Source: an uncultured Actinomycetota bacterium
GTDB lineage: Bacteria > Actinomycetota > Humimicrobiia > Humimicrobiales > Humimicrobiaceae
Assembly (NCBI GenBank): GCA_964518375.1
Contig: CAZFFH010000006.1
Coordinates: 1-32,414 of the forward strand
Length of the DNA stretch: 32,414 nt
Direction of reading: 5' to 3'
Under the pieces are notes generated by a model. That model had not been told where the DNA came from and did no database searches. It saw only the letters and a list, made by a program, of their open reading frames with translations. Shown here piece by piece: positions 778-28,217 of this stretch. Numbering within the stretch: position 1 is the stretch's first letter; each line of letters begins with the position of its first letter. The position numbers were made by a program, and so were the translations under genes.

Positions 778-802
778 TAAAAATCCTTTCAAGATCTAAT
801 TG

Positions 803-1753: not shown

Positions 1754-1808
1754 TGCCACTTTCCTTCCTAAGATTTACATAATTAAGGTTAATTTTTATC
1801 AAACCATA

Positions 1809-3023: not shown

Positions 3024-3068
3024 TTCATTTCTCCTTTTGATATTTTATTTTCAATTTAATTTATTTAA

Positions 3069-4352
3069 CTACTTACCTGTTTTATCAATAATATTGTTCA
3101 ATTTTTCCCTATAATACTTGAATTCTTTCCATGGAACTTCAGGTGGGATGAAATGATCCCCAAATGGAATAAAACCACCCTGTTTTATGGCCCACTCTAT
3201 TGGTTCTAAAAATTCATCAATCCTTTTTTTACCAAGTGCTATTTCTGATTTAGGGATCCCACCCATTATCTGCAATTCAGGATATCTTTTTCTCACCTTT
3301 ACTATGTCCATACCGGCAGATACTTCCATCGGATAGAGACCTGTGACACCGGTTTCCAGGAAAAGGGGTATTAATTCATTACAATCACCATCAGTGTCTA
3401 CAAATATGATTTTAACACCTTTGCTCTTCATAAAACCGCAAATTTTCTTATAATATGGCGATAAAAATTCTTTAAAGGTTGCCGGTGAAATCATTGAACC
3501 TTTGCCCGAAGAAACATCTTCCCAAATGTTGCATAAATCTATTTCAACCTTAGCCAATATTTCTTCCCACAAAGCAAGCCATACATCAGTTAACCGATCA
3601 AGGATATCTTTAATAAGATCGGGGTGGTCATAATAAAAAAAGAACAGATTTTCATAACCAATGAGATGTGTCAGACTGCCAAAAAGTCCATTCGGGTAAC
3701 CACCAAGTGCAAGAGGGTAGTCCCTATTCTTGTACTCAGCCACAAGCTCATCCCAATTTTTCGGAAGCCTTTCTTTTATATTATCTAATCTAATCCTTTC
3801 TTCTTTTAGCTTGTTCCAGCTATTCCAGTCCTTAACTATCCAATCCAGTCCTCCAGGTAAAACTTGTTGGGATTTTGAGTATCTCCTTGTGGCACCATCA
3901 ATATCGATATAATCAATATATTTTTCATCTTCACGTAAAAATTTGATTTTAAAATTAGGACAGACAAACTGTTCGGCACATACTACCTGTTGGCAAGAAT
4001 CGAATTGAAAATATTCTTTGACATCCTTATCCAGCGGAAATCCCTGAGTCGGCCAGTACAGGCCGCCTGACATTAATGCTATACCTTTAGGCAGCTTTAT
4101 TTCTGTTTCAGGCTCATTATATATTTTTTCAAATAGTGTCCTGCTTTTTTGCCATGTGCGTGTCCATATTGCAGTATAGAGGGAGGCTGTAGTGTTTATA
4201 ATATTAGTTGGAATTTTCGGGTAATTTTTTTTATTTAACCCTTCATCATACCATCTTTCAATTGTCGCTCCCCATATTCCAAACTCCCACTTGTTAGGGC
4301 CGACTTTTTTGTTAAACCTCATTGTTTCTAAAAAGATCTCCCTTGAATTCAT
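3069..4352 (-). CDS. Uroporphyrinogen-decarboxylase (URO-D) family protein, non-tetrapyrrole context
   Basis: 427-aa ORF. Its C-terminal half (IFVDTDGDCNELIPLFLETGVTGLYPMEV, IMGGIP, FGDHFIPPEVPWKEF) resembles the URO-D / MtaA-like TIM barrel family. The SD AAGGAGG sits inside the 3' end of the preceding LacI gene, and the stop and start codons are directly adjacent (4353/4352). Confidence 0.55.
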   Translation of the reverse strand: MNSREIFLETMRFNKKVGPNKWEFGIWGATIERWYDEGLNKKNYPKIPTNIINTTASLYTAIWTRTWQKSRTLFEKIYNEPETEIKLPKGIALMSGGLYWPTQGFPLDKDVKEYFQFDSCQQVVCAEQFVCPNFKIKFLREDEKYIDYIDIDGATRRYSKSQQVLPGGLDWIVKDWNSWNKLKEERIRLDNIKERLPKNWDELVAEYKNRDYPLALGGYPNGLFGSLTHLIGYENLFFFYYDHPDLIKDILDRLTDVWLALWEEILAKVEIDLCNIWEDVSSGKGSMISPATFKEFLSPYYKKICGFMKSKGVKIIFVDTDGDCNELIPLFLETGVTGLYPMEVSAGMDIVKVRKRYPELQIMGGIPKSEIALGKKRIDEFLEPIEWAIKQGGFIPFGDHFIPPEVPWKEFKYYREKLNNIIDKTGK

Positions 4353-5378
4353 CTATAACCTCCTTACTGAGTCTCTTCGGACTATTTTAGGGTCCAATAC
4401 CAGTTTCTTATTTTCAAAATCACCTGTTTCAAACTTATAAATCAAATTTGCAGCAACTTTTCTGCCGATTTCATGCATGTCGTGGTGTATTGTAGAAAGC
4501 CGTGGAAAAACTAGATTTGAGTAGATCATGTTATCATAACCCATTATTGAAATATCTTCAGGAATTTTTATTTTCTTTTCCTGCAATGATCGCATAAGGG
4601 TAATAGCAATTGTATCTGAAGTATTAAAAACAAAAGTGACTTTACTCTTAATTACGTCTTCAATACTATCCATTACGCTTGATTCAATTTTATTAAACTC
4701 CAGGGGGATATCTATTATAAAAGATGCTCCTAATCCTGCTTTTTTTAAAATACTTAAAAACCCTTTTACTCTCTGGTTAAATATATGCGCAGATCTATTA
4801 TAAGAAATAATTCCAATTTTATTATGATTATTTTCGCGGGCATAATCCGCTGCAATTTTTCCCCCCAGAAAATCATTACTTGATACAAAAGGGGTATCCA
4901 TATCTGGTATAATCCTGTCTACCATTATACATGGTATATTTCTTTCCAGCATCTCTAAAATAAAAATCTTATCATTTTTATTTCCATACACGGATGAAAA
5001 AATGACACCGTCTATAAATCTGTTATCTATTATCTTCGCTATTTCACGTTCTCTTTCAAGTGATTCCCTGAAATTGAAAATATTTAAACAATAACCTCTT
5101 TTTGATAGCTCGTATTCTGTACCATTAATCAGGTCCATAAAAGGCGGTTCTTTAAAACTTGGTAAGAGCAATGCTATCGTCTTGGTCTTTTTTGTTGTTA
5201 TTGCGCTTGCTATTTTGGATGGCTCATAGCTATATTTGTCACATATTTGCAGAATCCTGTTTCTGGTTTCTTCCTTAACCAGATATGGTTTATTAAAAAA
5301 TCTGGATATTGTCGCAACCGAAACCCTTGCTTCCTTAGCTATGCTGTAAATAGTCGCTTTTTCCATTTTTTCAGTCAT
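4353..5378 (-). CDS. LacI-family transcriptional regulator
   Basis: N-terminal HTH ATIYSIAKEARVSVATISRFFN, followed by a periplasmic-binding-protein-like sugar-sensor domain. The ORF track starts at a TTG at 5408. I prefer the ATG at 5376-5378 (MTEKMEKATIY...), but the start is uncertain by about 30 nt. Confidence 0.85.
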   Translation of the reverse strand: MTEKMEKATIYSIAKEARVSVATISRFFNKPYLVKEETRNRILQICDKYSYEPSKIASAITTKKTKTIALLLPSFKEPPFMDLINGTEYELSKRGYCLNIFNFRESLEREREIAKIIDNRFIDGVIFSSVYGNKNDKIFILEMLERNIPCIMVDRIIPDMDTPFVSSNDFLGGKIAADYARENNHNKIGIISYNRSAHIFNQRVKGFLSILKKAGLGASFIIDIPLEFNKIESSVMDSIEDVIKSKVTFVFNTSDTIAITLMRSLQEKKIKIPEDISIMGYDNMIYSNLVFPRLSTIHHDMHEIGRKVAANLIYKFETGDFENKKLVLDPKIVRRDSVRRL

Positions 5379-5413
5379 TTTAAAATTATTCCTACCCGAA
5401 TCTGGCAATTACT

Positions 5414-6805
5414 TTAAACCGGGATAACGGGTTTGATATCAAGTATCTCACAGGTTTTTATCAGTTCATTCTTATAATCCCCCATTACAACGTGAACATG
5501 ATTTGCCCTCAAGCAGCTAATAAAGCCATCTTGGCTGCAGTCAAGCTTTACAAATACATGCGGTTGCTGGGAATTTGTCTCATTTATCTTTTCAAGGGGC
5601 ATATTAAGCGCACTGCCAGTAGCAATCAGCATTACATATTCCCTGTTGACCCTTGAAAGTCTTGCAATTGTTACCTTGCCGGGTTTTCCCACATATCTTG
5701 GGCAGGCGCCTCCAATTTTCCAGTCAAATTCCCTTAACCCTTCTGTTACCCATACGACATCCTTTCTTGACTTTGCAAAATCTGTAGGCTGGGAACCGCA
5801 ATTGCACATCCTTACCATATTCTCATCGTAATCATAATACAATACATCAGTAAACATAGTTGTCGAACCTGTTATGTTGTTTAATATCTGCATAGTAAGG
5901 GCACCGTTCGCATCTGCTTCACAGGCAGATACCATGGAGCAACATTCACCAAATCCGTCATTTGAGCTGTCGTTTAATAAAGCATGTGCCACACAAAAAG
6001 TTGTAAAACATGAAGGCATTTCCGGAAGACACTTGACGGAGACAAAATCATAATTCTTTTCTTTTATAATTTCCCTCAGAGCAAAATAAAGTTTGATCTG
6101 TGCAATCATAACCTCATTTTTTGCCTCAACTCCACCAAATTCTTCTTTCATCCATTTTAAAAACTTAATCGCTTCTTCGTCGGAATACTTTTCAGACCTT
6201 TTTATGACATCCACCTGTTCAAACCCGTCAACATCCACACCAAATCTTTTCATCCATTCTGAAGGATCTATTCTTGCGGTATACATTCCCATGCACCTTG
6301 ATCCGCCTTCACCATAGATCATTCCCCTTAATTTTGTTGCCCCGGCAATGCCGCTTATAAGCGTTTTCAATTCATTCAGAAGTCTTTTATCTTCAAAGTC
6401 GCCATAAACAAGATAATTTTTAATTCCTACTTCATCTAAAGCACCCCTGACTATTGAGCCGCCTACGATTCCAAAAGTCTGAATACTGGAGTCCGCCCAT
6501 ACTATTACAGGCACATCGGCTTTCATGGCAGCCATAATCGCTGTGCTAGAATACGTCCAAGTACCTACATATATGACCAGTACATGCACTCCTTTGCTCC
6601 TTAATTCTTCACCATGTTCTGTCATTTTTTCGGGTGTTCTGGCAATATCTCCGCAATCAAAAACCTCAAAACCTAATTTTCTAATAGCTTCTCTTGATTT
6701 AGGTAAGTAGCCCTCTACCCTTTTTACAAAACTTTCCGGCCAGGTCTCGTCTAAAGACATCGTAACGATCAAACCAACTTTTGTTTTTTTGTCCTTATAA
6801 AACAT
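5414..6805 (-). CDS. L-fucose / L-arabinose isomerase family protein (aldose-ketose isomerase, substrate unknown)
   Basis: 463-aa ORF with SD AAGAGG. Its size and layout match my recollection of the short FucI-like family: an N-terminal Rossmann-like KVGLIV...VLVIYVGTWTYSS and a C-terminal ...HVHVVMGDY. Confidence 0.6.
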   Translation of the reverse strand: MFYKDKKTKVGLIVTMSLDETWPESFVKRVEGYLPKSREAIRKLGFEVFDCGDIARTPEKMTEHGEELRSKGVHVLVIYVGTWTYSSTAIMAAMKADVPVIVWADSSIQTFGIVGGSIVRGALDEVGIKNYLVYGDFEDKRLLNELKTLISGIAGATKLRGMIYGEGGSRCMGMYTARIDPSEWMKRFGVDVDGFEQVDVIKRSEKYSDEEAIKFLKWMKEEFGGVEAKNEVMIAQIKLYFALREIIKEKNYDFVSVKCLPEMPSCFTTFCVAHALLNDSSNDGFGECCSMVSACEADANGALTMQILNNITGSTTMFTDVLYYDYDENMVRMCNCGSQPTDFAKSRKDVVWVTEGLREFDWKIGGACPRYVGKPGKVTIARLSRVNREYVMLIATGSALNMPLEKINETNSQQPHVFVKLDCSQDGFISCLRANHVHVVMGDYKNELIKTCEILDIKPVIPV

Positions 6806-7178: not shown

Positions 7179-8225
7179 TTAATATTCTGCTCCCCATATC
7201 TCAATTGCTTTTGGCAAATATTCCGCAGCATTGCTTGCATCTACCGTAGGTGTCTCAAGATAGGTAAAGTATTCAACTTTTTCACCATTAAAAATCTTTC
7301 CCATAACTGACATTGAAAGCTCTGCATCAGAAATCGGGGACTGGAATATTGTAAACAGCATCCAGCCGTCTTTTACCATCTGGACAGCTTGCGTCTGACC
7401 ATCGCATCCGTTGGTAACTATCTTACCTGGTTCAACTCCTGCAGCCTTTAGTGCATTTACAACACCGATACCCATGCCGTCATTATGAGCATAGATCATC
7501 TGAAGTTCGTCCCCAAAGGTTGTTAACCAGTTTTCGGTAAGGGTCTGGCCTTTATCCGGTGACCAGTCTCCCGGTTGAAGATCAAGCATATTGAATTTGG
7601 CTTCAGCGCCAGCTTCCTTTAACGCGTCATTGAAACCATTTTCTCTGTCTATTGCTGCTCCATATCCTGCCATTCCGGTCATGTGGCAGTAATTAATAAT
7701 GTCATAGCCCATTTTTTCAACATATTTAACATATTCTGCACCCATCTGTTTGCCCTCAAGATAGCTGTTCGGGCCTGCAAACCCTTTTACTGAAGCAATT
7801 TCTGCAGGATCAGTTAATGTGTTTGATATGAGTATTGGTAAGTCCGGATACTCGCCATGCACTTTTTCAAGCACTGATACAATACCGGCAGCATCAGTAG
7901 GCATAACAAACAGCCCGTCCAAGCCCTGAGCCACAAGGTCCTCAACCTGATTAGCCTGAGTATTGATATCACCCTTTGCATCAGTCAATATCATTTCCCA
8001 GCCACGGGTTTCTACAGAAGCCTGTAAAGCCTTGGAAAATGGAAAACAGTATGGGCTGTCCTCAATAAATGGCATTGAATAACCGATTTTCATACCTGCT
8101 GCTGCAGCGGTTGTTACTTCTGCTGCTGTTGTTACTTCTGCTGCTGTTTGCTTGCAGCTTACCCCACCCATCAGTAAGGTGAAGGCAAAAGCCACAACCA
8201 GCAAACCTATTACTATTTTTTTCAT
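7179..8225 (-). CDS. Monosaccharide ABC transporter substrate-binding lipoprotein (RbsB-like, type I periplasmic binding fold)
   Basis: Signal peptide MKKIVIGLLVVAFAFTLLMGGVSC with a lipobox-like Cys, then a Thr/Ala linker and an RbsB-type fold. SD AAGGAGG upstream. Confidence 0.85.
   Translation of the reverse strand: MKKIVIGLLVVAFAFTLLMGGVSCKQTAAEVTTAAEVTTAAAAGMKIGYSMPFIEDSPYCFPFSKALQASVETRGWEMILTDAKGDINTQANQVEDLVAQGLDGLFVMPTDAAGIVSVLEKVHGEYPDLPILISNTLTDPAEIASVKGFAGPNSYLEGKQMGAEYVKYVEKMGYDIINYCHMTGMAGYGAAIDRENGFNDALKEAGAEAKFNMLDLQPGDWSPDKGQTLTENWLTTFGDELQMIYAHNDGMGIGVVNALKAAGVEPGKIVTNGCDGQTQAVQMVKDGWMLFTIFQSPISDAELSMSVMGKIFNGEKVEYFTYLETPTVDASNAAEYLPKAIEIWGAEY
8097..8150. repeat. 18-bp tandem repeat (2 near-identical units plus degenerate flanks) encoding the TAAEVT-TAAEVT-TAAAAG linker of the lipoprotein
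   Basis: GGTTGTTACTTCTGCTGC (8109-8126) is followed by TGTTGTTACTTCTGCTGC (8127-8144), a 17/18 match. In protein it reads CKQTAAEVTTAAEVTTAAAAGM. Confidence 0.8.
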
Positions 8226-8270
8226 TTCGTTTTTCCTCCTTAAGGATTTTTGTTTTTTTACATATTCATA

Positions 8271-9242
8271 CTACGCCCCTTTTTCCATCACCCCCTTTTC
8301 AATGTCCAGCTTTTTCCTTCGAGATGTTACTGCGTCAGTTACAACGACAAATAGTATGATAATGCCTCTTACTAAAAGCTGGTAATTAGTATCAACGTTA
8401 AACACAACCATTGCCCTTTCAATGAGACCAAGAATAATAACACCCTGAATGGTGCCGATAACACCGCCCTTGCCGCCGAAGAGGCTTGTACCACCCAGTA
8501 CCGCAGCTGCTATTACGGTCAGATTTGTGGTATCCCCAAATACCGCATTGCCCGTGTTTACTCTTGATGACAGTATTATACCGGAAACTGCAGCTGTAAA
8601 AGCACAGAATACAAAATAATACAGTGTATATAAATTAACATTTATTCCGGAAAGTCTTGCAGATAAAATATTTCCGCCGATGGCATAATCATTTCGTCCG
8701 AATTTTGTATATTTCAGTAAATACCACACAATTATAAATATTGCAATTAAATAGAATAGTGTAATATCGACACCAAAAACCTGGCCCTGCCCGATAAATT
8801 GATAGGCAGCGATTGTCCCCTTTACAGGTGAGCTTCCTGTTAATGCAAGACCGAAACCTTTAAATATTACCATAGTTCCAAGAGTAGCTATGAAAGCATT
8901 TATTCTGCCTTTAACGACAAGCAACCCGTTTATAACACCAACCATTGTCCCAGCAATAAGACCTATTAGAACTGATAAAAAAAGCCCCAGCGGTTTTTGC
9001 AGCATTATGGTAATAATACCTGTAAAAGCCATTACAGAACCAACGGAAAGATCAAATGATCCGCTTATTAGAAGCACAGTCATGCCTGCTGCCATTATTC
9101 CAATAATTGTCGCATGTTCAAGTATGCTTGCAAGACTTTTAACGGTAAAAAAACTCTTATCCTCAACTGACAAGGCAATAATCAGCACTATTATTATAAT
9201 TATTAATTTCTGGTCTATTATGAAATTAGTTATTTTTTTCAT
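8271..9242 (-). CDS. Sugar ABC transporter permease (RbsC-like, BPD_transp_2 type)
   Basis: 323-aa polytopic hydrophobic ORF. It overlaps the upstream permease by 4 nt (ATGA). Confidence 0.85.
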   Translation of the reverse strand: MKKITNFIIDQKLIIIIIVLIIALSVEDKSFFTVKSLASILEHATIIGIMAAGMTVLLISGSFDLSVGSVMAFTGIITIMLQKPLGLFLSVLIGLIAGTMVGVINGLLVVKGRINAFIATLGTMVIFKGFGLALTGSSPVKGTIAAYQFIGQGQVFGVDITLFYLIAIFIIVWYLLKYTKFGRNDYAIGGNILSARLSGINVNLYTLYYFVFCAFTAAVSGIILSSRVNTGNAVFGDTTNLTVIAAAVLGGTSLFGGKGGVIGTIQGVIILGLIERAMVVFNVDTNYQLLVRGIIILFVVVTDAVTSRRKKLDIEKGVMEKGA

Positions 9243-10222
9243 TGATATAATAACCTCTTTCTTCTGTTAAATTCATCATAAAGCACTGCCAGTATTAAAA
9301 TTATTCCCTTGATGAGCTGCTGATATTCATAAGGAATGGATAGAATAGCCATGCTATTATTGACAATTCCAAAGATTGCAAGTCCTATTGCCGTCTTGTA
9401 AATGCCTCCCATGCCTCCTGTAAGGGCAGTTCCACCAAGAACAACTATTGTAATTACATCAAAAAGGTAGGGTGCAGTCTGTCCGACTCTGATTCTTGGA
9501 ATTCGTGAAGTCATAACCACTGCAGCAATTCCGCAGATAAGACCATTTAATACGTAAGTGCCCATTATTATATTGGATGTATTTATTCCGGAAACCAGAG
9601 CAGCTTTATCATTTAAGCCAGCTGCATAAAGCCTCCTGCCGGCAATGGTTTTCTGAAGTAAAATACCTGTAATAATCATTATAATTATTAAAAATATTAT
9701 TATGACCGGAAAACCAAAAACGCTGGAAGAACCGATATAAGAAAAAACCAGCAGGGGTCTAGCTGTTAAATTTCTGCCTTCGGAAATAATTAACGATGTT
9801 GCCGTAAACAGGATCCCGGTAGCCAGCGTTACAATAATGAAGTTTGCTTTGACTTTTCCGATAAAGTAACCGTTTATAAAACCGCAGACAACGCCAACCG
9901 CTATTGCCACTGCTACACTTACAGCATAACCGTACTGCTGAATCATTACAAATGAAACAGCTGAAAGACCGAGTATTGCTGCAGCGGACAGGTCTATTCC
10001 CTTGCCAATTATTACTAAGGTCATGCCGCAGGCCATTACTCCCAGTATGGCAACATGCCTGAAAAGGTTATAAATATTGTTCAGTGTAAAAAAATTATCA
10101 GAAACAAAAATCATAATTACAAACAGTATTATCAGTATAAAGAGCATGGCCTGACTATAAAAAAACTTTATGAACCCTCTTTTAACACTTGTGCTTTTTA
10201 TTGTTGTATCAGCATCACTCAT
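9239..10222 (-). CDS. Sugar ABC transporter permease (second RbsC-like subunit)
   Basis: 327-aa polytopic ORF, a paralogue of 8271-9242. It overlaps the ATPase gene by 4 nt. Confidence 0.85.
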   Translation of the reverse strand: MSDADTTIKSTSVKRGFIKFFYSQAMLFILIILFVIMIFVSDNFFTLNNIYNLFRHVAILGVMACGMTLVIIGKGIDLSAAAILGLSAVSFVMIQQYGYAVSVAVAIAVGVVCGFINGYFIGKVKANFIIVTLATGILFTATSLIISEGRNLTARPLLVFSYIGSSSVFGFPVIIIFLIIIMIITGILLQKTIAGRRLYAAGLNDKAALVSGINTSNIIMGTYVLNGLICGIAAVVMTSRIPRIRVGQTAPYLFDVITIVVLGGTALTGGMGGIYKTAIGLAIFGIVNNSMAILSIPYEYQQLIKGIILILAVLYDEFNRRKRLLYQ

Positions 10223-11739
10223 AAATTTTTTACCTCGCTTTGAATATTTCCAACTGCCACCTGCATAAGATCTTCTTCGTTTAGCTCTTCTTTTCTAAAT
10301 TCTTTAATTAATTTACCTTCCCTTATTACAAGTACTCTGTGACACATCCCGATGATTTCAGGTAGCTCAGAGGAAACCATAATTACTCCTATCCCGCTAT
10401 TTGCCAGTTCCTTTACAAGGGTATGGATTTCCTTTTTTGCACCCACATCGATACCTTTTGTGGGTTCATCCAATATTAATATTTTTGGACTGGTTGAAAG
10501 GCACTTAGCAAGAGCAACTTTTTGCTGATTGCCGCCGCTTAAGTTCATTACTAACTGCTCCATTGAGGGAGTTTTAATTGAAAACTCATCAATGTATTTT
10601 TTAGCAAGCCTAGCCTCTTTTTTTGTACTTATTAGCCCAATTTTAGATATCACTTCTTTTAATAACAAGATCGTAACGTTTTCTCTTACTGTAAATCCCT
10701 GAATAATGCTTTCTGTTCTTCTATCCTCAGATACAAAAGCAATCCCTTTATTTATTCCATCCGTAGAATTTTTTATATTGACTCTCTGGCCTTCCACCAA
10801 GATTTCTCCACTATCCAGCTTGTCTAAACCAAATATTGATCTGACTATTTCACTTCTTCCAGCACCAACCAGTCCGGATAGGCCTAAAATTTCACCCCTC
10901 TTTAAATTGAAGCTTATATTTTTGAAAAAACCTCTTCTGGCAATGTTTTTAGCTTCTAGTATTAGTTCTCCTGAAACCTCGTATGTTTTTTCACCGAAAA
11001 TATCTCCTATATCTCTACCTACCATATATTTCACTATATCCATTTCGCTTGTCTCGCTGACTTTTATTGTTGTCACTGTTTTACCGTCACGCAGGATTGT
11101 AACCATTTCTGCAATCCGGAAGATTTCCTTAAGCCTGTGAGAGATATATATAACCGAGGTTCCTTTTTTAACGATTCCTCTGATAATATTGAACAAGTTT
11201 TCCGTATCATCTTCGGCTATTGCAGAGGTAGGTTCGTCCATTATTATTATTTTTGCTTCCCTGGAAAAAGCTTTCGCTATTTCTATGAGTTGTTGCTGAG
11301 CAGTTGAAAGATCGATAACAATAGATCTGGGGTTTAAATTAATAGATAAGTCGTCAAGGATTTTTTGTGAATCATCAAACATTTGTTTCCAGCGAAGCTT
11401 ACCGCCTTTAATAGGCTGTCGTCCTAAAAATATATTTTCGGCAACAGATATTTCCGGTACCAGCGATGTCTCCTGATATATAGTGTTGATACCCAACTGC
11501 ATCGCATGGAAAGGATTTCGTATATTGATTTTTTTGCCTTCGATTTTTATTTCTCCGTGATCATTTGTATAAGAGCCGGATAATATCTTTATTAAGGTGG
11601 ATTTCCCTGCCCCATTCTCACCGACTATTGCAAAAACCTGGCCTTTTTCTAATTTGAAAGAAACCCCATCAAGGGCTTGGACGCCGGGAAAATATTTTGA
11701 TATATCAATCATTTCAAGCAGATATTCATTTGAACTCAA
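10219..11739 (-). CDS. Sugar ABC transporter ATP-binding protein with duplicated ATPase domains (RbsA/MglA type)
   Basis: Walker A motifs GENGAGKST and GLVGAGRSE, signature LSGGNQQK, and Walker B ILILDEP. It starts at a TTG preceded by AGGAG with 6-nt spacing. Confidence 0.9.
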   Translation of the reverse strand: MSSNEYLLEMIDISKYFPGVQALDGVSFKLEKGQVFAIVGENGAGKSTLIKILSGSYTNDHGEIKIEGKKINIRNPFHAMQLGINTIYQETSLVPEISVAENIFLGRQPIKGGKLRWKQMFDDSQKILDDLSINLNPRSIVIDLSTAQQQLIEIAKAFSREAKIIIMDEPTSAIAEDDTENLFNIIRGIVKKGTSVIYISHRLKEIFRIAEMVTILRDGKTVTTIKVSETSEMDIVKYMVGRDIGDIFGEKTYEVSGELILEAKNIARRGFFKNISFNLKRGEILGLSGLVGAGRSEIVRSIFGLDKLDSGEILVEGQRVNIKNSTDGINKGIAFVSEDRRTESIIQGFTVRENVTILLLKEVISKIGLISTKKEARLAKKYIDEFSIKTPSMEQLVMNLSGGNQQKVALAKCLSTSPKILILDEPTKGIDVGAKKEIHTLVKELANSGIGVIMVSSELPEIIGMCHRVLVIREGKLIKEFRKEELNEEDLMQVAVGNIQSEVKNL

Positions 11740-11850
11740 ATAAAACTCCTATTTTTATTTAAATGATTTTAACTTTTAGAATATATTTTTTACAAATAAA
11801 AATATATTTATTAAATATTAATGACAATAAATTAGTGGCTTTTTGTTTTA

Positions 11851-11864
11851 TGTAACCTGTTGCA
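11851..11864. promoter_or_regulatory. Candidate repressor operator, TGTAAC-CT-GTTGCA (imperfect palindrome)
   Basis: The half-sites are TGTAAC and TGCAAC. It begins 1 nt downstream of the -10 box of the ABC promoter and so covers the predicted +1. Confidence 0.45.
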
Positions 11865-11865
11865 T

Positions 11866-11893
11866 ATTATAACTTTTATTATTACAATGTCAA
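11866..11893 (-). promoter_or_regulatory. Consensus sigma-70 promoter TTGACA-N16-TATAAT for the ABC transporter operon
   Basis: The minus strand reads TTGACAttgtaataataaaagtTATAAT, with the -35 at 11888-11893 and the -10 at 11866-11871. It lies about 125 nt upstream of the TTG start at 11739. Confidence 0.65.
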
Positions 11894-11977
11894 CTTAAAA
11901 AAATTACTTAAAATTCGTTTTTTCCCCTTATCCAAAAACGGTACAAGTATAGTGACTTATATCCTGGTGAGGAATAC

Positions 11978-12940
11978 TTAATATCTTATTTCATCAGGTT
12001 TTTCAAAAAACGCAACTTTTCTTATGAACTCTATTGCTTTTTTAAAACCTTCATTTTTTCCGATCAAGGCATCCTGATGTTCAACACTCAATGAACCGTC
12101 ATACCCGCATAACCTGAGAACTGAAACCAGTTTTCTCCAGAATTCTTCACTATGACCATAACCTACAAGCCTCAAGTTCCATGCTCTTGAAGCCAGCTTG
12201 CCATAATCCTTGGAATCAAGAACCCCATCTACGCTGACTACTTTCATATTCAGTTCCGCATCTTGGGCGTGAACATTAAAAATAAGACCATTAAGAATTT
12301 TTACACATTCTATTGGGTCCATGCCCTGCCAGAATAGGTGTGCAGGATCAAAGCAGCAACCCAACCCGTCATAATCCACTTCTTCTCTTAATTTAACCAG
12401 TGTGCTTGTGTTAAAAACTGCATCACCAGGATGCATTTCAAAAGCATACTTTATTTTGTATTTTTTTAATTTTTCTGCCATTTCTCTCCAAAATGGAATA
12501 ATCCTTTCACTCCACTGCCATTTAAGGTAGCCCCTGAATTCAGGCGGGTAAGGCAGCCCGATCCAGCAAGGATATTTTGCGTCTTCAGCGGCCCCGGGGC
12601 AACCTGCAAAACCGTTTAAGACTTTTACCCCAGTTGCTGCAGCAAGCTCTACTACATTTTCCAGGTCTTTTCTGTGAGTATCTGAAATTTTTTTGTTGGG
12701 ATGAAGATAATTGCCCATACAGGAAAATGAACTTATCTGTAAATTGTGCTTTTCCAAAACAGATATAAAATCTCTTAACGCAAACTTATCTTTTAAAAGT
12801 TTTTCCGGGTTACACACATATGTTCCATGCAGTGCACCTGCACCAATTTCCAGGCACTCAAAACCGGCTTCACTTGCACTCCTGCAGATATCAGGCCAGC
12901 TTTCATTAAAAAAACAGTTAGTAAACAAACCTATTTTCAT
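11978..12940 (-). CDS. Sugar (phosphate) isomerase/epimerase, xylose-isomerase-like TIM barrel family
   Basis: 320-aa ORF (GFECLEIG, FEMHPG, CFDPAHL, SVEHQD pattern). It is a distant paralogue of 803-1753. Confidence 0.75.
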   Translation of the reverse strand: MKIGLFTNCFFNESWPDICRSASEAGFECLEIGAGALHGTYVCNPEKLLKDKFALRDFISVLEKHNLQISSFSCMGNYLHPNKKISDTHRKDLENVVELAAATGVKVLNGFAGCPGAAEDAKYPCWIGLPYPPEFRGYLKWQWSERIIPFWREMAEKLKKYKIKYAFEMHPGDAVFNTSTLVKLREEVDYDGLGCCFDPAHLFWQGMDPIECVKILNGLIFNVHAQDAELNMKVVSVDGVLDSKDYGKLASRAWNLRLVGYGHSEEFWRKLVSVLRLCGYDGSLSVEHQDALIGKNEGFKKAIEFIRKVAFFEKPDEIRY

Positions 12941-12993
12941 TTTTTACCTCTGCGCTCCCACGATCTATTTCTTAAATACCAAAAAGAAAACTT

Positions 12994-14175
12994 TTAAGGT
13001 TTTATAATGATTTTTGCTGCTTCTCTCTTCTTTGCAAGCTCCATTGCTTCAAGTCCGTCAATCAGTTTAAACCTGGAGGTTATTATTTTTTCGGGATGCA
13101 GCATACCTGCCGAAATCAACCTTATCACATTTTCAAAAGATCCATTTCCTGAATGTCCCATGGAACAGTGTATCTGGGCTGCCCTTGGAAACATTTTCTT
13201 AAAGTCTGTTGGTACAGGCTTTGGTGGCCAGGCCACAAGAATAATTTTACCATTGACATTTAGAGAATTGAGCATTGCAGGCATTGTCATCTCAGTAGCA
13301 CCTGAACTTTCCATAAAGAAGTCTGCTCCCTGCCCATTAGTCTCATCAAGTATAATGTCCTCTACTCTTCCTCCGCTTTCAGTTATTGAAATAGGATCAA
13401 ATACCTTGTCAGCTCCCATTTCAAGTGCAAGCTTTCTCCTGCCTTCACCAGGTTCAAAAACCATAACTTTTGAAGCACCGGCTACTTTTAACTGTGAAAT
13501 ACCAAAAAGACCAATTGGTCCACAACCAAAAACTACCGCTCTCTGGCCGGGCCTGATTCCCTGTCCTCTTTCAAAAATTGCATTATATGCCACTGAATTC
13601 GGTTCTATCGTTGCACCAACGTCAAATATTAATTCTTCTTCCTTATAAATATTTTTAAATCCATTAATATTCCAGCATAGCTTTGCCGGTACTCTAAGAT
13701 ATTCTGCAAAACCACCATCATATGTTACACCTACTTCCTCCAGTCTCTCACACTGATTTGGAAACCCATTTCTGCAAGCAACACACTCACCGCACCATGT
13801 CATTTCCTCTGTAGTCACATAATCTCCAACTATAAAATCAAACACTTCGGGGCCGATTTTATAAACTATTCCTGAGATTTCATGGCCTAATATAATTTTT
13901 TCCATTCTTGCATGACCCGGATAAAGCATGTAACCTTCTTCATCATACTCTACAAAATGTAAATCAGAACCGCATATCCCACAGGATTTGACACTGATAA
14001 GTATATCTTTCGGACCGATTTCAGGAATATCAACTTCTACTAAATTTAATTCCGGGAATCTCCAGACACTGTTTGAATCCCATATTTTTTTTGTCGTAAG
14101 TTCATATTCTGTCATATGATAATCCTTTTTTGGTTCATATTTGCTTGTAAGTTTCAGAGCCTTCATTTTAGCCAT
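12994..14175 (-). CDS. Zinc-dependent medium-chain alcohol/polyol dehydrogenase
   Basis: Catalytic zinc blocks CGICGSDLH and GHEISGIV, structural zinc block CGECVACRNGFPNQC, and Rossmann motif VFGCGPIG. Its start overlaps the transketolase C-subunit stop by 8 nt (ATGGCTAA). Confidence 0.85.
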   Translation of the reverse strand: MAKMKALKLTSKYEPKKDYHMTEYELTTKKIWDSNSVWRFPELNLVEVDIPEIGPKDILISVKSCGICGSDLHFVEYDEEGYMLYPGHARMEKIILGHEISGIVYKIGPEVFDFIVGDYVTTEEMTWCGECVACRNGFPNQCERLEEVGVTYDGGFAEYLRVPAKLCWNINGFKNIYKEEELIFDVGATIEPNSVAYNAIFERGQGIRPGQRAVVFGCGPIGLFGISQLKVAGASKVMVFEPGEGRRKLALEMGADKVFDPISITESGGRVEDIILDETNGQGADFFMESSGATEMTMPAMLNSLNVNGKIILVAWPPKPVPTDFKKMFPRAAQIHCSMGHSGNGSFENVIRLISAGMLHPEKIITSRFKLIDGLEAMELAKKREAAKIIIKP

Positions 14176-15154
14176 AATATTTTAATTCCTTCCTTCTTTG
14201 TCCTATTTTATTTTTAAAATTAATTAACTCCCTGGCTTTAGCTTGTATGTTTTCAATACTTATACCAAAATATTGAAGTTGAAATTCAAGGTCTGCGGTC
14301 AGTCCGAACTGATTATTTATACCTATCCTGAAAACCGGGACAGGAAATTCTTCTGTTACAATTTCTGATATCAAACCACCTAAACCACCACATGTGGAGT
14401 GATTCTCTACTGTCAGTATGGCGCCTGTTTCAATTGCACATCTAATGATTAATTTCCGGTCTGCAGGTTTTATTGTCGGAATATGCAATACCCTGGCATT
14501 TATATTTTCTTTTTCTAATGCTTCCTGTGCCCGAAATGCTATAAAAGTTGTCAGACCATTGCAAATAATTGTCAGGTCAGCCCCGTCACCCCTAACATAG
14601 GCATTATTAATCTTAAAAATATAGGATGAATCAAAAATATTTTCCGGAAGAGATCTGGGCAAGTGTATATATGTGGGACCGGTATCCTTTGAAACTGTTA
14701 CCAGGACTTCTTTCAATTCCCTTATATCTGAAGGTGCGATTACCTTCATTTTTGGTAAAATCCTCATTATTGCAAAATCCATTAATGAAATATGAGTCCC
14801 GCCATTTTTTCCCTGTGATAAACCGGAATAGCATCCGACAAGTTTTACATTAAGAGCATTATATGCTGCCCCCAGAAAGACCTGATCACATGCCCTCTGT
14901 GAAAGGAAATTTGACATTGTACAAGCAAAAGGTATCCTGCCCATTACTGCCAACCCTGCTGCAATACTGACAAGATTCTGCTCCGCGACTCCGACATTTA
15001 TATGTCTGTCAGGAAACTTTAACATGAACTGTTTTGAACCGGATGCCTTCATAAGATCAGCTTCCACAACAAATATATCCGGATTAGAGGTACCAAGTTC
15101 AAGAAGGGTTTCCCCATACGCTTCTTTTGTTTGTATTAGATTAAAACCGCTCAT
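14168..15154 (-). CDS. Transketolase C-terminal subunit (pyrimidine-binding plus C-terminal domains)
   Basis: 328-aa ORF with GVAEQNLVSIAAGLA and the layout typical of split transketolases. It lies immediately downstream of the N-subunit gene. Confidence 0.85.
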   Translation of the reverse strand: MSGFNLIQTKEAYGETLLELGTSNPDIFVVEADLMKASGSKQFMLKFPDRHINVGVAEQNLVSIAAGLAVMGRIPFACTMSNFLSQRACDQVFLGAAYNALNVKLVGCYSGLSQGKNGGTHISLMDFAIMRILPKMKVIAPSDIRELKEVLVTVSKDTGPTYIHLPRSLPENIFDSSYIFKINNAYVRGDGADLTIICNGLTTFIAFRAQEALEKENINARVLHIPTIKPADRKLIIRCAIETGAILTVENHSTCGGLGGLISEIVTEEFPVPVFRIGINNQFGLTADLEFQLQYFGISIENIQAKARELINFKNKIGQRRKELKYYG

Positions 15155-15211
15155 CTGTTATTAATAAATACTCATGTGCTGTTTCTAGTAATAAACCAAA
15201 CCAGGATTATT

Positions 15212-16048
15212 TCAACAAGTATTAAGCCTTCTCTGAAGTTCCTTTAGCCCAAGCTTATATTGTTCTTCGTCTACCTTACCACTGTGCCACTCCGAACTGT
15301 TTTCCATAAAAGAAACCCCAAATCCTTTTACTGTATTGGCTATTATTATCTTTGGCTGCGAATTTTTTATTTTTGCTGAATCTATTGCTGCAATAATGGA
15401 TCCTATTGAATGTCCGTCTGCCTTAAAAACTTCCCATCCAAATGCTTCCCACTTTTTATCAAGTGGGTCCGTTGGCATTACCTCTTCTACGGGCCCATCG
15501 ATCTGCGAATTATTTCTGTCTACTATTGCAATAATATTATCGAGCTTATATTTTGCTGCAGACATTGCTGCTTCCCAAACCTGACCGCTATCTAATTCAC
15601 CATCGCTCAGCACGACATAGACCATATTTACTTTTTTCTGCTGTTTTAATGAAATAGCAATACCACAAGCCATTGAAAGCCCCTGGCCAAGAGGACCCGT
15701 GGACAGTTCAATTGATTCCAGCATGTTTCTGTCAACATGCTTGGGGAATCTGGACAAAGGTTTATCCAGACCATCATACAGTTCGTTATACGAAAAAAAA
15801 CCTCTTTTAGCCAGAGTCGTGTAAAGGGCAGGACCGCCATGACCTTTTGAAAGCACAAACATATCTCTGGATTCATCCCCCGGTCTTGAAGGGTCAACCT
15901 TCATTTTTAAGAAATAAAGGACTGTAAGTATCTCGACTATTGACAAGCTTCCGCCAAAATGCCCACCACCTGCTTCAGCAATTACTTTGAATGTCTCCAG
16001 CCTTATTTCATCTGCAATTTTTCTTAATCTACCCTCTATGTTTACCAT
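15212..16048 (-). CDS. Transketolase N-terminal subunit (thiamine-diphosphate-binding)
   Basis: 278-aa ORF with GGGHFGGSLS, SKGHGGPALY, TGPLGQGLS and the TPP motif SDGELDSGQVWEA. Confidence 0.85.
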   Translation of the reverse strand: MVNIEGRLRKIADEIRLETFKVIAEAGGGHFGGSLSIVEILTVLYFLKMKVDPSRPGDESRDMFVLSKGHGGPALYTTLAKRGFFSYNELYDGLDKPLSRFPKHVDRNMLESIELSTGPLGQGLSMACGIAISLKQQKKVNMVYVVLSDGELDSGQVWEAAMSAAKYKLDNIIAIVDRNNSQIDGPVEEVMPTDPLDKKWEAFGWEVFKADGHSIGSIIAAIDSAKIKNSQPKIIIANTVKGFGVSFMENSSEWHSGKVDEEQYKLGLKELQRRLNTC

Positions 16049-16058
16049 GACTTCATAT

Positions 16059-16089
16059 TTAACATATTATGTTAAAAATCAACTGTCAA
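16059..16089 (-). promoter_or_regulatory. Candidate promoter TTGACA-N17-TATGTT overlapped by the perfect palindrome TTAACATA-T-TATGTTAA
   Basis: The -35 lies at 16084-16089 and the -10 at 16061-16066. The 8-1-8 palindrome spans 16059-16075. The -10 ends only 12 nt from the ATG at 16048, and no SD is visible. Confidence 0.45.
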
Positions 16090-16141
16090 TACTGTAAAAT
16101 AATCTAAAAATTTTAATATGTACTTATATTTTTACCTGTAA

Positions 16142-17236
16142 TCAGAAACCTATCCTAGGTAACCCGTATACAGACCTCCAGCCATCACTTAACGGCTCCC
16201 TTAAATATGGTTCCATTTCTTTTTCTGTTCTAAGTGTTGTCTTTTCAACAGGAGGTACCTTGCCTGGCGGCAATGCTTCAATAATCTCATCATTCAAAAG
16301 AGTCAGGTATTTTAGTATGGCAGCTATTGGCCTTTTTGCCTTCTCTGCAGAGGCTTTTGTTGCATATCCGACAACACCTTCGGGAGTTGTCATGACTTCA
16401 AGGCCTACATGACCTTCACACTCAGACCATTTTGAAGGTCTGCGATATTCATCAGTTGGAGTATCCATGTGACCACCCGGAATATAAAATTCCGGCTCAG
16501 TATCACAGGCATATTTCATGTCTATCAGTTGTGGAAAAAGAAGTAGACCTATTGATGTTTCAGCCTCATCCGCATGCGTGAAAGGAGTATCAAATTGCCC
16601 TCCTTTTTCCTTAGTTCTGAAAAATTCCCTTACAGATCTATGCCAGTCCAGAACCCTGAAAATTCCAGGTATCTGATATTTTTTAACAAAATCCTGGATA
16701 GTTGATTCAAGCATCCAGAGCTGCCCATGGTTGTTTATTATCACCTGTTTTCTGAAACCATCATTCCATAAGCCCAGCATAACATCATGCAATAAAGCTT
16801 TTGTATTGTCTTCTTGTATTACAACAGTCCCAGGAAGACCTACATGATGGTAAGGGTGAGTACCATATATCAGGGGTGGAAATGCGATATTTATCGGAGT
16901 ACCCCTTTTTGCTGTAAACCTTCTGACACCCTCAAGAATCTGTGTAACAAAAAGTGTGTCCATTGAACTTACAGTATGTTGGCCGTGAAGCTCTGTAGAA
17001 CCGACTGGAATAAAAACAATATCATTTTTCTTTCTTTGTTCAGGAATTTTATATCTTATGGTGGATTGCAGATAAGTTCCTTCCTTAAACCATTCCGGAG
17101 ATGTAGGAATACCATAATCCTGCAATATCTTATCAATATCTTTATCACTTGATTCCCAGATCTCTTTTTTCATTCTGCCAACGGGAGAATCTTCAAAAAA
17201 TAAATCCTCTATATTTGTTTTTAAAAGACCACTCAT
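16142..17236 (-). CDS. Creatininase-family metal-dependent hydrolase, unusually long form
   Basis: 364-aa ORF. It has the creatininase-type metal blocks IPVGSTELHGQH...D, NNHGQ and HADEAETS. A good SD (AAAGGAG) lies upstream. Confidence 0.7.
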   Translation of the reverse strand: MSGLLKTNIEDLFFEDSPVGRMKKEIWESSDKDIDKILQDYGIPTSPEWFKEGTYLQSTIRYKIPEQRKKNDIVFIPVGSTELHGQHTVSSMDTLFVTQILEGVRRFTAKRGTPINIAFPPLIYGTHPYHHVGLPGTVVIQEDNTKALLHDVMLGLWNDGFRKQVIINNHGQLWMLESTIQDFVKKYQIPGIFRVLDWHRSVREFFRTKEKGGQFDTPFTHADEAETSIGLLLFPQLIDMKYACDTEPEFYIPGGHMDTPTDEYRRPSKWSECEGHVGLEVMTTPEGVVGYATKASAEKAKRPIAAILKYLTLLNDEIIEALPPGKVPPVEKTTLRTEKEMEPYLREPLSDGWRSVYGLPRIGF

Positions 17237-19653: not shown

Positions 19654-19669
19654 AGTATAACGTTAAACT
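19654..19669. promoter_or_regulatory. Candidate LacI-type operator AGTATAAC-GTTAAACT (CG-centred 16-bp palindrome, one mismatch pair)
   Basis: It contains the perfect core TAACGTTA. It starts 7 nt downstream of the -10 box and lies 44 nt upstream of the CitE-like ATG. The LacI gene (19830-20876) is immediately upstream. Confidence 0.5.
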
Positions 19670-19676
19670 ATTTAAT

Positions 19677-19705
19677 ATCATAATAAATATCTTTTCATAT
19701 GTCAA
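19677..19705 (-). promoter_or_regulatory. Sigma-70 promoter TTGACA-N17-TATGAT for the CitE-ALDH-hydrolase unit
   Basis: The minus strand reads TTGACAtatgaaaagatatttatTATGAT, with the -35 at 19700-19705 and the -10 at 19677-19682. Confidence 0.55.
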
Positions 19706-19829: not shown

Positions 19830-20876
19830 TCAACATATGCTTTTTTTGCCAGGTGCAGTTGATTCCCTTATTATTATTTCAGGGGTCAATACCTTATTAA
19901 TTGTAATGTTTATATCTTTGCCCTCAATTTTTTTTATAAGTTCTCCTGTAGCTATTGCAACCATTTCCTTAATTGGCTGTCTCACCGTAGTTAAATTTAC
20001 AAAATCCATTGAACTGAACCCGATGTCATCAAAGCCTGCAATAGAAACGTCCTCAGGAATTTTCAAGTTCTTCTTGTAACAAAAATCTATGACACCGTAG
20101 GCTGCAAAATCGTTTGAACAGAAAATTGCAGAAGGTTTATTTTTGAGTAAAAAAAGTTTTTTTGCTCCTTCTTTTCCACTTTCGGGATTGAACTCTTTTT
20201 CTATGATTATATTTTCTTCCCTTATGTCAATACCGCTATCACTTAATGCAGCTTTATAACCTTTTAACCTGTTTTGAGTAACAAGAGTGTCAAGCGGGCC
20301 TGAAATATATCCTATATTCCTATGTCCCTGATCCATCAGATATCTAATTAATAAATAAGCACCCATGTAGTTATCGACTGTTACAAAATTGATATCCATA
20401 TCAGAATGGTCGGGATACCTTCCAATAAAAATAATAGGTATGTTAATATCCTGAAGGTAACTAAGACACACCCTGCTTAATTTATCTGAGGTACTTAGAA
20501 TACCATCTACTCTGTCTTCCAATAAAGAATCAATATATTTATCGCCGGTTTCCTCACCAATACTCATATCTACAAACAATGTTCTGTAATTAAGATTTTT
20601 TTGGTATATATATTCTTCTATGCCACTTAAGATTTCTGTCTGGTAAGGATTTTTTATATCAAACACTATCAGACCAATTTTGTTTGTTTTTTTAGAAACC
20701 AGGCTTCTTGCTACAAGATTTGGCTTATAGTTAAGCTGTAAAATTGATTGTTCGATTTTCTTTCTGGTATTTTTACTGACATAAGGCTTCTTGCAAAGAT
20801 ATTTTGAAACACAACCTGCCGATATCCCTGCTAACCTTGCAACATCTTTTATGCTTGGAGATTTCTTAACTCTCAT
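19830..20876 (-). CDS. LacI-family transcriptional regulator
   Basis: HTH SIKDVARLAGISAGCVSKYL, followed by a sugar-binding effector domain. 348 aa. Confidence 0.88.
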   Translation of the reverse strand: MRVKKSPSIKDVARLAGISAGCVSKYLCKKPYVSKNTRKKIEQSILQLNYKPNLVARSLVSKKTNKIGLIVFDIKNPYQTEILSGIEEYIYQKNLNYRTLFVDMSIGEETGDKYIDSLLEDRVDGILSTSDKLSRVCLSYLQDINIPIIFIGRYPDHSDMDINFVTVDNYMGAYLLIRYLMDQGHRNIGYISGPLDTLVTQNRLKGYKAALSDSGIDIREENIIIEKEFNPESGKEGAKKLFLLKNKPSAIFCSNDFAAYGVIDFCYKKNLKIPEDVSIAGFDDIGFSSMDFVNLTTVRQPIKEMVAIATGELIKKIEGKDINITINKVLTPEIIIRESTAPGKKSIC

Positions 20877-21905: not shown

Positions 21906-22064
21906 TTTAATCCTCCTTTTGTAATTCCGTAATTAATTTCTGGGAAATAATCCAATTTATAATACAAGAAATCCATCAAATTTTTCCATTTATATGCATT
22001 GGACTTAATATAGCATATATCCTTAAAATAATTATAAAATTTGCCTATTTTTTAACAATACAAA

Positions 22065-24116: not shown

Positions 24117-24128
24117 ACAATTCTCCTT

Positions 24129-25679: not shown

Positions 25680-25704
25680 GTTTTTCCAATCAGTTTAAAA
25701 TCTT

Positions 25705-25722
25705 TTATAAAGGGCTTTATAA
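25705..25722. promoter_or_regulatory. Perfect 8-2-8 palindrome TTATAAAG-GG-CTTTATAA upstream of the FGGY kinase gene
   Basis: It lies 26 nt upstream of the ATG at 25679, within a 151-bp gap. The loop is too tight for a stable RNA hairpin, so a DNA-binding site is more plausible. It is AT-rich, so chance occurrence is possible. Confidence 0.25.
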
Positions 25723-25830
25723 TCTTAGATATCCTTAAATAATAAATGCCCATATAGTAGAAATATTTATTTGATTCTTGCTAGACGCTTTAATTTTCTT
25801 TTTAATCTAATAGGCTTTGACATTTAAATT

Positions 25831-28073: not shown

Positions 28074-28217
28074 AAAAATCACCCTCCTCACCCTGAAATG
28101 CTTTTACGCTGAGAGACTTCTTAAAAACATTAACGGGTTGCTTAACAGTACCATTATTGCTAGATTTTAGTTCATTGTTCTCGGACATTTTTACCTTCTC
28201 CAATATATTAATATATT

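Follow-up and report, generated by a model that had tools for sequence, protein, structure and literature searches.

The window examined here is a stretch of 32,414 nucleotides that makes up the whole of contig C6 (CAZFFH010000006.1; 32.4 kb) in a metagenome-assembled genome (MAG) of 1.53 Mb and 84% completeness, from an uncultured bacterium of the actinobacterial family Humimicrobiaceae. All of its large open reading frames are on the minus strand, and among them is a closely packed operon of seven genes, running from 19610 down to 11978, whose predicted products point to cyclitol breakdown. In order of transcription these are a CitE-like acyl-CoA lyase (CoA, coenzyme A), a SucD-like CoA-acylating aldehyde dehydrogenase (ALDH), IolN, the two halves of a split transketolase (TK_N and TK_C), IolM and a xylose-isomerase-like triosephosphate-isomerase (TIM) barrel, here called TIM1 (Table 1). 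The gaps between the genes are 38-98 nt, and the TK_C stop overlaps the IolM start by 8 nt. A preliminary description of this DNA had dealt with positions 7179-17236; each gene that it named was recovered in its place, on the minus strand, with Pfam and NCBIfam models, and its span cuts the transcription unit, with the CitE-like and ALDH genes upstream in the same operon. A sequencing-run lookup places the operon DNA in lake-water metagenomes, with no RNA dataset among the runs listed as containing it. What this lake-water actinobacterium carries is a repressor-controlled operon of cyclitol type, and the transporter next door to it is from a different gene set.

Table 1. Features of the operon, its control region and the adjacent importer unit
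Feature	Coordinates	Strand	Basis or remark
LacI-family repressor	19830..20876	-	LacI and Peripla_BP domains; upstream of the operon
Predicted operon promoter, TTGACA-17-TATGAT	19705-19677	-	11/12 consensus
Operator-like palindrome, CG-centred, AGTTTAACGTTATACT	19654-19669	-	within promoter/operator region 19654..19705
CitE/malyl-CoA-lyase-like acyl-CoA lyase, 292 aa	18732..19610	-	PF03328 and PF15617
CoA-acylating aldehyde dehydrogenase, SucD-like, 452 aa	17335..18693	-	PF00171
IolN equivalog (3-dehydro-scyllo-inosose hydrolase), 364 aa	16142..17236	-	NF041098; creatininase family PF02633
Split transketolase, N-terminal, thiamine diphosphate (ThDP)-binding subunit (TK_N)	15212..16048	-	PF00456
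Split transketolase, C-terminal (Pyr + C) subunit (TK_C)	14168..15154	-	PDB 6yaj match
IolM equivalog (scyllo-inosose 3-dehydrogenase), 393 aa	12994..14175	-	NF041097; ADH_N and ADH_zinc_N
TIM1, xylose-isomerase-like TIM barrel, last operon gene	11978..12940	-	PF01261
Predicted promoter of the ATP-binding cassette (ABC) unit	11893-11866	-	12/12 consensus
ABC-unit palindrome	11851-11864	-	differs from the operon operator; unique in the window
CUT2 ABC importer	7179..11739	-	fused double ABC ATPase, two BPD_transp_2 permeases, Peripla_BP_4 binding protein
ABC-unit intrinsic terminator	7127-7097	-	clean

The two best promoter matches in 17.5 kb stand before the CitE-like gene and before the gene for the ABC ATPase. 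The operon has its own LacI-family repressor and a conserved predicted operator, for which the motif in its short form is GTTTAACGTTAYAC; in the orthologous operon of the related locus L128 the same palindrome is present, as GGTTTAACGTTACACT, downstream of the promoter. LacI orthologs of 51-55% identity adjoin the same operon in L128 (51%) and in L211 (55%), and in another relative, L225, the repressor gene is absent along with the operon.

The ring-opening part of the operon is the most readily recognized. Its zinc-dependent alcohol dehydrogenase (Zn-ADH) scores 475.7 bits on the IolM model NF041097 (cutoff 450), with residues 4-392 on model positions 1-388, and matches PDB 3ip1, which we take to be the IolM of Thermotoga maritima, at 9e-94. 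The hydrolase scores 320.6 bits on the IolN model (cutoff 245) and matches PF02633 at 7.9e-42. Among 14 control genomes the IolN model matches T. maritima alone, and in a sample of 401 genomes of the phylum it exceeds its cutoff in the MAG's own family only. The preliminary description had taken these two proteins to be IolM-like and IolN-like, and had allowed that similarity at family level only would speak against it; both lie above curated equivalog cutoffs, so the similarity is specific beyond family level and oxidative, hydrolytic ring opening of a cyclitol, which it had suggested, is the best reading. In T. maritima myo-inositol is degraded by an oxidative-hydrolytic pathway of IolG, IolM, IolN and IolO followed by hexuronate enzymes (PMC3750489, PMC12632266). 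What is shared with that pathway is the pair of IolM and IolN equivalogs, hence the expected second oxidation and beta-diketone hydrolysis, and repressor control. Description of the Thermotoga pathway is reportedly due to Rodionova et al. (2013, Environ Microbiol 15:2254).

According to the preliminary description the transketolase had been inserted into the block, but it turns out to be part of a conserved operon core, as the order IolN-TK_N-TK_C-IolM recurs in three more lineages, represented by L128/L131/G032, by L130 and by L211. Identities to the window's proteins in the first of these are 51% for the CitE-like lyase, 70% for ALDH, 85% for IolN, 62/60% for the two TK subunits, 81% for IolM and 51% for LacI; in L130 they are 79% (ALDH), 91% (IolN), 78/74% (TK), 87% (IolM) and 77% (TIM1), and in L211, where a cupin gene stands between TK and IolM, 79% (IolN), 65/63% (TK), 65% (IolM), 62% (TIM1) and 55% (LacI). 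The CitE-like/ALDH pair is seen with the core in two of these three further lineages. Looser versions are present in two other lineages, G029, with the order TK_N-TK_C-LacI-IolN-like, and the high-GC L212, in which a classical IolN (453 bits) is followed directly by a split TK, and an IolM (487 bits) directly by a TIM1 homolog. A TIM1 homolog follows IolM in L130 and L211 also. The other proteins of the window were looked for in the 80 best IolN loci of GTDB genomes, 54 of them long: TK, ALDH, CitE-like lyase, TIM1 and the ABC binding protein were each found in 0 of the 54 long loci, the ABC ATPase in one and one permease in two; the transketolase variant is therefore rare and not the usual context of IolN.

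On a tree of 93 IolN sequences the five nearest TK-linked members form one clade, with a value of 97 in the Shimodaira-Hasegawa-like approximate likelihood-ratio test (SH-aLRT). The IolNs of G029 and L212 fall elsewhere, so that TK linkage appears in three separate places and parsimony needs three state changes. The TK-operon IolMs are also a separate clade, on a long stem with SH-aLRT 100. Residues 1-51 of the window's IolN are a conserved N-terminal extension of about 50 residues that lies outside the IolN model; the IolNs of its clade share it, and it is present too in Anaerolineae IolNs of 65% identity, and classical IolNs (L212, G024, G029) are without it.

The transketolase itself is unusual in its substrate pocket. 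TK_N matches PDB 6yak at 2e-78 and, in alignment to 6yak and human transketolase, keeps the catalytic histidines (GGGH, SKGH, KH, EWH) and the ThDP/Mg motif DG...N. TK_C matches PDB 6yaj at 8e-74, and its residues that align with human R318/S345/H416/E423/D424/R474 are K/A/Y/K/N/R (K10, A37, Y109, K116-N117 and R167), so that the canonical sugar-phosphate pocket is missing. The split TK of C. hydrogenoformans keeps the canonical residues in the same alignment. The RSHEDR signature is also that of the C11 paralog in the MAG and of 44 among the roughly 87 generic split TKs. None of the six IolN-linked TKs has retained the canonical His and Asp; the pockets of the five besides the window's read KAYKNR in L130, AAYKNR in L128/G032 and AAFKNR in L211, and, in the looser loci, RSYKTR in G029 and RSSQLR in L212. 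The first four of these positions are ligands of the substrate phosphate in the yeast, E. coli and human enzymes. The Asp position (Asp469 of E. coli TK) is a hotspot for substrate specificity and stereoselectivity (PMC13663882). Because the phosphate-ligand residues are altered and there is no kinase in the conserved core of the operon, we infer a substrate that would be non-phosphorylated and probably carboxylate-bearing. A housekeeping TK is encoded elsewhere in the MAG.

A metagenome scan with an alignment of the TK_C clade gave, among the 80 matches tallied, close matches in L130 and L131 only, the other 78 being generic split TKs. About a dozen further metagenomic split TKs have Tyr at the phosphate-binding His position together with an altered Glu-Asp (L134, L144, L155, L156, L158, L170, L174, L179, L185 and L205 are of this type), and those of L134, L144 and L156 belong to sugar loci that also encode ABC importers, Zn-ADHs, TIM barrels, LacI regulators or an FGGY kinase. 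Such Tyr-type enzymes perhaps make up a wider group of catabolic transketolases. A second kind of split TK is found near the operon in L128 (2471-4489) and L211 (8236-10057), beside a small TIM barrel or cupin; its pocket, R-S-[L/I]-I-E-R, is also without the canonical His and Asp, and by analogy with the sulfo-TK pathway it could provide a second ketol-transfer step.

Upstream in the operon are the two CoA-dependent enzymes. The ALDH matches PDB 8cei, an acylating succinate-semialdehyde dehydrogenase, at 8e-124, with types such as EutE and AdhE scoring more weakly; its catalytic Cys239 is within IPCASEQS, which places it among the acylating ALDHs, and it reaches no equivalog cutoff (SauS 393 bits against 600). 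The best PDB matches of the lyase are CLYBL (5vxc) and malyl-CoA lyases. It retains the LDLED, VRxN, Mg-ligand Glu/Asp, IHPSQI and lid-Asp signatures and so belongs to the CitE/malyl-CoA lyase family, again reaching no equivalog cutoff (citE 149 bits against 443). Lyases of this family cleave 3-hydroxy-3-carboxy-acyl-CoAs to a short acyl-CoA and glyoxylate or a 2-oxoacid. The likeness to the malyl-CoA lyase/CLYBL/CitE and SucD systems is one of fold, signature residues and catalytic Cys, and of the chemical sequence from aldehyde to acyl-CoA to Claisen-type cleavage yielding glyoxylate; they differ in that the present enzymes are below the equivalog cutoffs and form a fixed pair, with a probably hydroxylated C4 semialdehyde as substrate. 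Both would suit a C4 acid semialdehyde, since C4 is what remains after a C2 ketol leaves a C6 keto-aldonate. The lyase adjoins the ALDH in every related locus, as a fixed pair in sugar-acid loci, and the ALDH is 66-79% identical across all contexts of the module; the other neighbours of the pair are C-C-cleaving enzymes, such as class II aldolase with FGGY kinase, HpcH-type aldolases and E1-type ThDP enzymes. A split E1 alpha/beta stands directly before the pair in L126, and on the P0013 contig another follows the pair at a distance of about 3 kb. The pairing was not found described in the searchable literature.

That the pair also occurs without IolMN, as a module, leads to the idea that neither it nor the transketolase acts on the IolN product, and that the operon joins two partial pathways whose gene order reflects co-regulation only: TK could, for example, act on the phosphorylated ketose of another route, with ALDH and the CitE-like lyase acting on glycolaldehyde or glyoxylate. 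The Tyr-type split TKs in other sugar loci and the different downstream enzymes of L212 fit such an arrangement. It is nonetheless improbable, given that the interleaved IolN-TK-TK-IolM order is conserved with TK_C and IolM translationally coupled, that the phosphate-binding residues have been lost in a core without a kinase, and that the tree has three places at which IolN became or stayed linked to TK. The downstream genes of L212 (Logan SRR21285597, 1-11000) have, in place of the CitE-like lyase and ALDH, a glyoxylate-reductase-like 2-hydroxyacid dehydrogenase, a GarL/HpaI-like aldolase and two Ldh_2-family dehydrogenases, apparently a third means of metabolising what the transketolase releases.

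The last gene of the operon was initially thought to encode an IolO-type epimerase, an assignment that does not hold: TIM1 has no match to the IolO model (NF041099) at E<=1e-3 and none to TM0416 (2zvr) at E<=0.01, and its sole NCBIfam match is a weak one, to IolE (26.7 bits). Its AlphaFold (AF2) model, built from 38 homologs with a predicted local distance difference test (pLDDT) score of 95.2 and compared by Foldseek, is closest to SCO6571 (2zds, template-modelling score (TM) 0.83) and to the 2-hydroxy-3-keto-glucal hydratase AtHYD (8ro4, TM 0.84), with TM values of 0.60-0.68 to ketose 3-epimerases, IolI and AsbF. A paralog, 52% identical, is on contig C21 of the MAG in a locus (3505-6535) where it adjoins a Gfo/Idh/MocA gene resembling levoglucosan dehydrogenase (396 bits, cutoff 650) and a TIM barrel like TIM2, a protein of the window described below; this locus resembles 3-keto-sugar (levoglucosan or glycoside) oxidoreductive pathways. 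Because of its closest structures and of the neighbour of its paralog, the modelled TIM1 looks like a hydratase or eliminase acting next to a keto group, rather than an epimerase.

Taken together, the operon with its LacI gene on balance probably serves the catabolism of a cyclitol (an inositol or an inosose) by a variant of the Thermotoga-type pathway with a transketolase/CoA ending. The first dehydrogenase (IolG) and the transporter would be encoded outside the operon. IolM would oxidise an inosose to a diketo-inositol, a step with support at equivalog level, and IolN would hydrolyse the ring to a 5-keto-aldonate, which, for a substrate originating from myo- or scyllo-inositol, would be 5-keto-L-gluconate. 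TIM1 would probably make this intermediate acceptable to TK, through a dehydration or through an isomerisation beside a keto group. The split TK would then remove the HOCH2-CO- end of the non-phosphorylated keto-acid as a C2 ketol, in a pocket rebuilt for this step (His to Tyr, Glu-Asp to Lys-Asn, Ser to Ala and loss of the first Arg), pass the C2 unit to an acceptor and leave the C4 acid semialdehyde 2,3-dihydroxy-4-oxobutanoate. From this the SucD-like ALDH would make the CoA thioester, tartryl-CoA, and the CitE-like lyase would split it to glyoxylate and glycolyl-CoA, provided that no hydroxyl of the chain has been lost; should TIM1 have taken one off beforehand, the sequence would be malate semialdehyde, malyl-CoA and then acetyl-CoA plus glyoxylate. 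There are two PTA_PTB genes in the MAG, and with phosphotransacylases encoded outside the operon ATP could be gained from the acyl-CoA. In its most specific form, a kinase-free cyclitol route with a TK rebuilt for a carboxylate, tartryl-CoA, and a CitE-like tartryl-CoA lyase yielding glyoxylate and glycolyl-CoA, the proposal is tentative, possible rather than probable.

Several points weigh against this pathway. A search of the rest of the genome for IolG (TIGR04380), in a MAG that is incomplete, gave a best score of 131 bits against a cutoff of 355, and an IolG-like gene is within about 1-2 kb of IolN in 53 of the 54 ordinary long loci. The margin of IolM over its cutoff is small and its branch is long and separate, and so its substrate may differ. 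In L212 IolN-TK and IolM-TIM1 are both present but with other genes downstream. The CitE-like/ALDH pair is also beside aldolases whose products would be C3 or other aldehydes, which leaves room for other substrates of the pair. With the stereochemistry of the C4 product and of TK donors derived by hand from Fischer projections, 5-keto-L-gluconate is, on our assumption, of D-sorbo configuration, with C3' and C4' both inverted with respect to canonical TK donors, so that an epimerisation or a changed TK stereopreference must be assumed; D-tagaturonate, the IolO-type epimer, would by the same assumption fit TK at C3' but not at C4'. It is suggestive, by the same hand reasoning, that the Asp to Asn change in TK is at the residue that reads the C4' hydroxyl. 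Tartryl-CoA and glycolyl-CoA are, to our knowledge, not established natural intermediates. No literature description of a cyclitol route through transketolase and tartryl- or glycolyl-CoA was found, and searches on IolN/IolM with transketolase, on transketolase with tagaturonate or fructuronate, and on Humimicrobiia did not find this operon described.

The Gfo/Idh/MocA gene of IolG type deserves separate consideration. As the preliminary description had observed, the window has none. Two genera of the same family, G312 and G213, have a plain trio of IolM, IolN and an IolG-like gene, and between the TK-operon IolM and the IolM of the family's ordinary trios identity is only about 41%. The lack of an IolG gene would be explained, as would the separate IolM and IolN clades, if the chemistry were the same and the substrate an uncommon one for which IolG is dispensable: an inosose imported ready-made, a deoxy- or methyl-cyclitol of the quercitol or pinitol type, or another carbocyclic polyol. 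The hydratase/eliminase-like nature of TIM1 also accords with this, and malyl-CoA, on which lyases of this family classically act, would arise from a deoxy intermediate. In the sister lineage L128, however, an IolG-like gene that is full-length and has IolG as its best match (290 bits) is 9 kb upstream of the operon; the best match to it in the MAG is 28% identical, in an assembly that is incomplete and on a contig that ends at 32.4 kb. Moreover, IolM and IolN pass equivalog cutoffs trained on the scyllo-inosose route. An uncommon substrate is rather unlikely.

The preliminary description had also reasoned that the chemistry after ring opening must differ from that of Thermotoga, and this is upheld. 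Neither IolG nor IolO was found, nor was the hexuronate tail. At the 84% completeness of the MAG, KDPG aldolase (2-keto-3-deoxy-6-phosphogluconate aldolase, PF01081), altronate dehydratase (PF04295) and malate synthase were not detected. From the full Thermotoga-type set of IolG, IolM, IolN and IolO with a tagaturonate/2-keto-3-deoxygluconate (KDG) route, IolM and IolN alone are present. The operon differs from the Thermotoga pathway in being without IolG and IolO, its TIM1 being of another TIM-barrel subgroup; in the steps after the keto-aldonate, which here would be carried out by an altered-pocket TK, a CoA-acylating ALDH and a CitE-like lyase; and in having a LacI-type regulator where Thermotoga has one of ROK type, with no dedicated transporter in the operon.

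The CUT2 ABC system downstream had been put forward as a cyclitol importer, and by synteny it belongs instead to the FucI-like/kinase unit that follows it. In L225 and L226 homologs of the binding protein, 84% and 79% identical, are part of the same ATPase-permease-permease-binding-protein set, followed as in the window by a FucI-like isomerase, LacI_4353, a URO-D-like protein, an unknown protein, TIM2 and a ribulokinase, after which in L225/L226 a class II aldolase comes next. L225 is 94-97% identical to the window in the genes of this downstream unit yet is without the whole block from the LacI gene at 19830 to TIM1, and no IolMN genes precede its ABC set; the operon and its repressor are therefore an insertion/deletion cassette, and the importer belongs to its neighbour. 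Linkage or co-regulation of the importer with IolM and IolN is thus contradicted by synteny, by operator and by L225. Co-regulation through a shared operator was considered and rejected, as the region ahead of the ABC genes has no copy of the operon palindrome, and the palindrome that it does have occurs nowhere else in the window. Against solved structures, ribose-, galactofuranose-, polyol- and inositol-binding relatives of the binding protein (7179-8225) score in the same range, so that the comparison singles out no ligand; a sugar for the FucI-like route would be expected, and not a cyclitol. The inositol transporter of T. maritima, given in the preliminary description as a CUT2 system, is listed as InoEFGK, with naming in the style of MalEFGK and not of Rbs type, beside RbsABC for ribose (PMC3750489), and the attribution to CUT2 is doubtful.

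As first conceived, then, TIM1 would be IolO, the CUT2 system would import the cyclitol, the product would enter hexuronate metabolism and the transketolase would be an unrelated insertion. The IolM and IolN equivalogs, with a TIM barrel and ABC genes physically adjacent, are what made this attractive. It is now very improbable: TIM1 is without IolO/TM0416 similarity and resembles hydratases, four lineages keep the transketolase between IolN and IolM, the searches of the MAG found neither KDPG aldolase nor altronate dehydratase, and the importer, whose promoter is without the operon operator, is syntenic with the FucI-like unit in L225, which has no cyclitol block. The synteny of the ABC genes with that unit already contradicts it.

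The conserved unit at 1-6805 encodes the FucI-like isomerase, a LacI protein, a URO-D-like protein of 427 aa, a 404-aa protein with no family match, TIM2 and the ribulokinase. TIM2 (803-1759), outside the operon, is a ketose-3-epimerase-like barrel that scores 80 bits on the IolO model (cutoff 300). URO-D-like proteins recur in many sugar-acid loci (L127, L129, L210 and L212); the family is known from haem synthesis and methyltransferases, and a sugar-acid context for it is odd. Upstream of the operon, at 20988-28091, is a unit of a mannitol-1-phosphate-dehydrogenase-like protein, a second Zn-ADH (201.6 bits on the IolM model), an FGGY kinase, an E1 enzyme that is a fused alpha-beta ThDP enzyme without E2/E3, and a mutarotase-like protein of TTE1925 type.

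Dedicated split transketolases are familiar from the sulfo-TK pathway of sulfoglycolysis (SqwGH) and from the apulose-4-phosphate transketolase (AptAB) of D-apiose catabolism. In these, as proposed for the present operon, a split TK in a catabolic operon clips a C2 ketol from an unusual anionic ketose; the difference is that the presumed donor here would carry a carboxylate and derive from cyclitol ring opening, the pocket of the enzymes considered here being [K/A]-A-[Y/F]-K-N-R. The fates known for 5-keto-L-gluconate are C-4 epimerisation (IolO/LguG) to D-tagaturonate and reduction (LgnI) to D-idonate (PMC12632266). C-C cleavage of the same presumed intermediate by transketolase, as proposed here, would be a third.

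Plant, algal and microbial biomass is rich in inositols and related cyclitols, and for their breakdown by bacteria we know of two established schemes only, that of Bacillus (IolABCDEJ) and that of Thermotoga (IolGMNO). The operon shares its first steps with the latter and points to an undescribed ending of cyclitol breakdown. If true, it would be a third ending, with transketolase acting on a non-phosphorylated acid and energy kept in a thioester with no need for a sugar kinase, and, should the kinase-free reading through tartryl-CoA hold, it would be the first natural pathway to proceed by way of tartryl-CoA and glycolyl-CoA, the metabolism of which, so far mainly discussed for synthetic pathways, may thus have a natural counterpart. 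The transketolase, as a natural example of an enzyme with a rebuilt substrate pocket, would be of interest for biocatalysis, and the SucD-like/CitE-like pair that recurs in many sugar-acid loci is a natural example of interest likewise. For the organisms themselves, a kinase-free thioester ending would suit small-genome anaerobes of lake hypolimnia.

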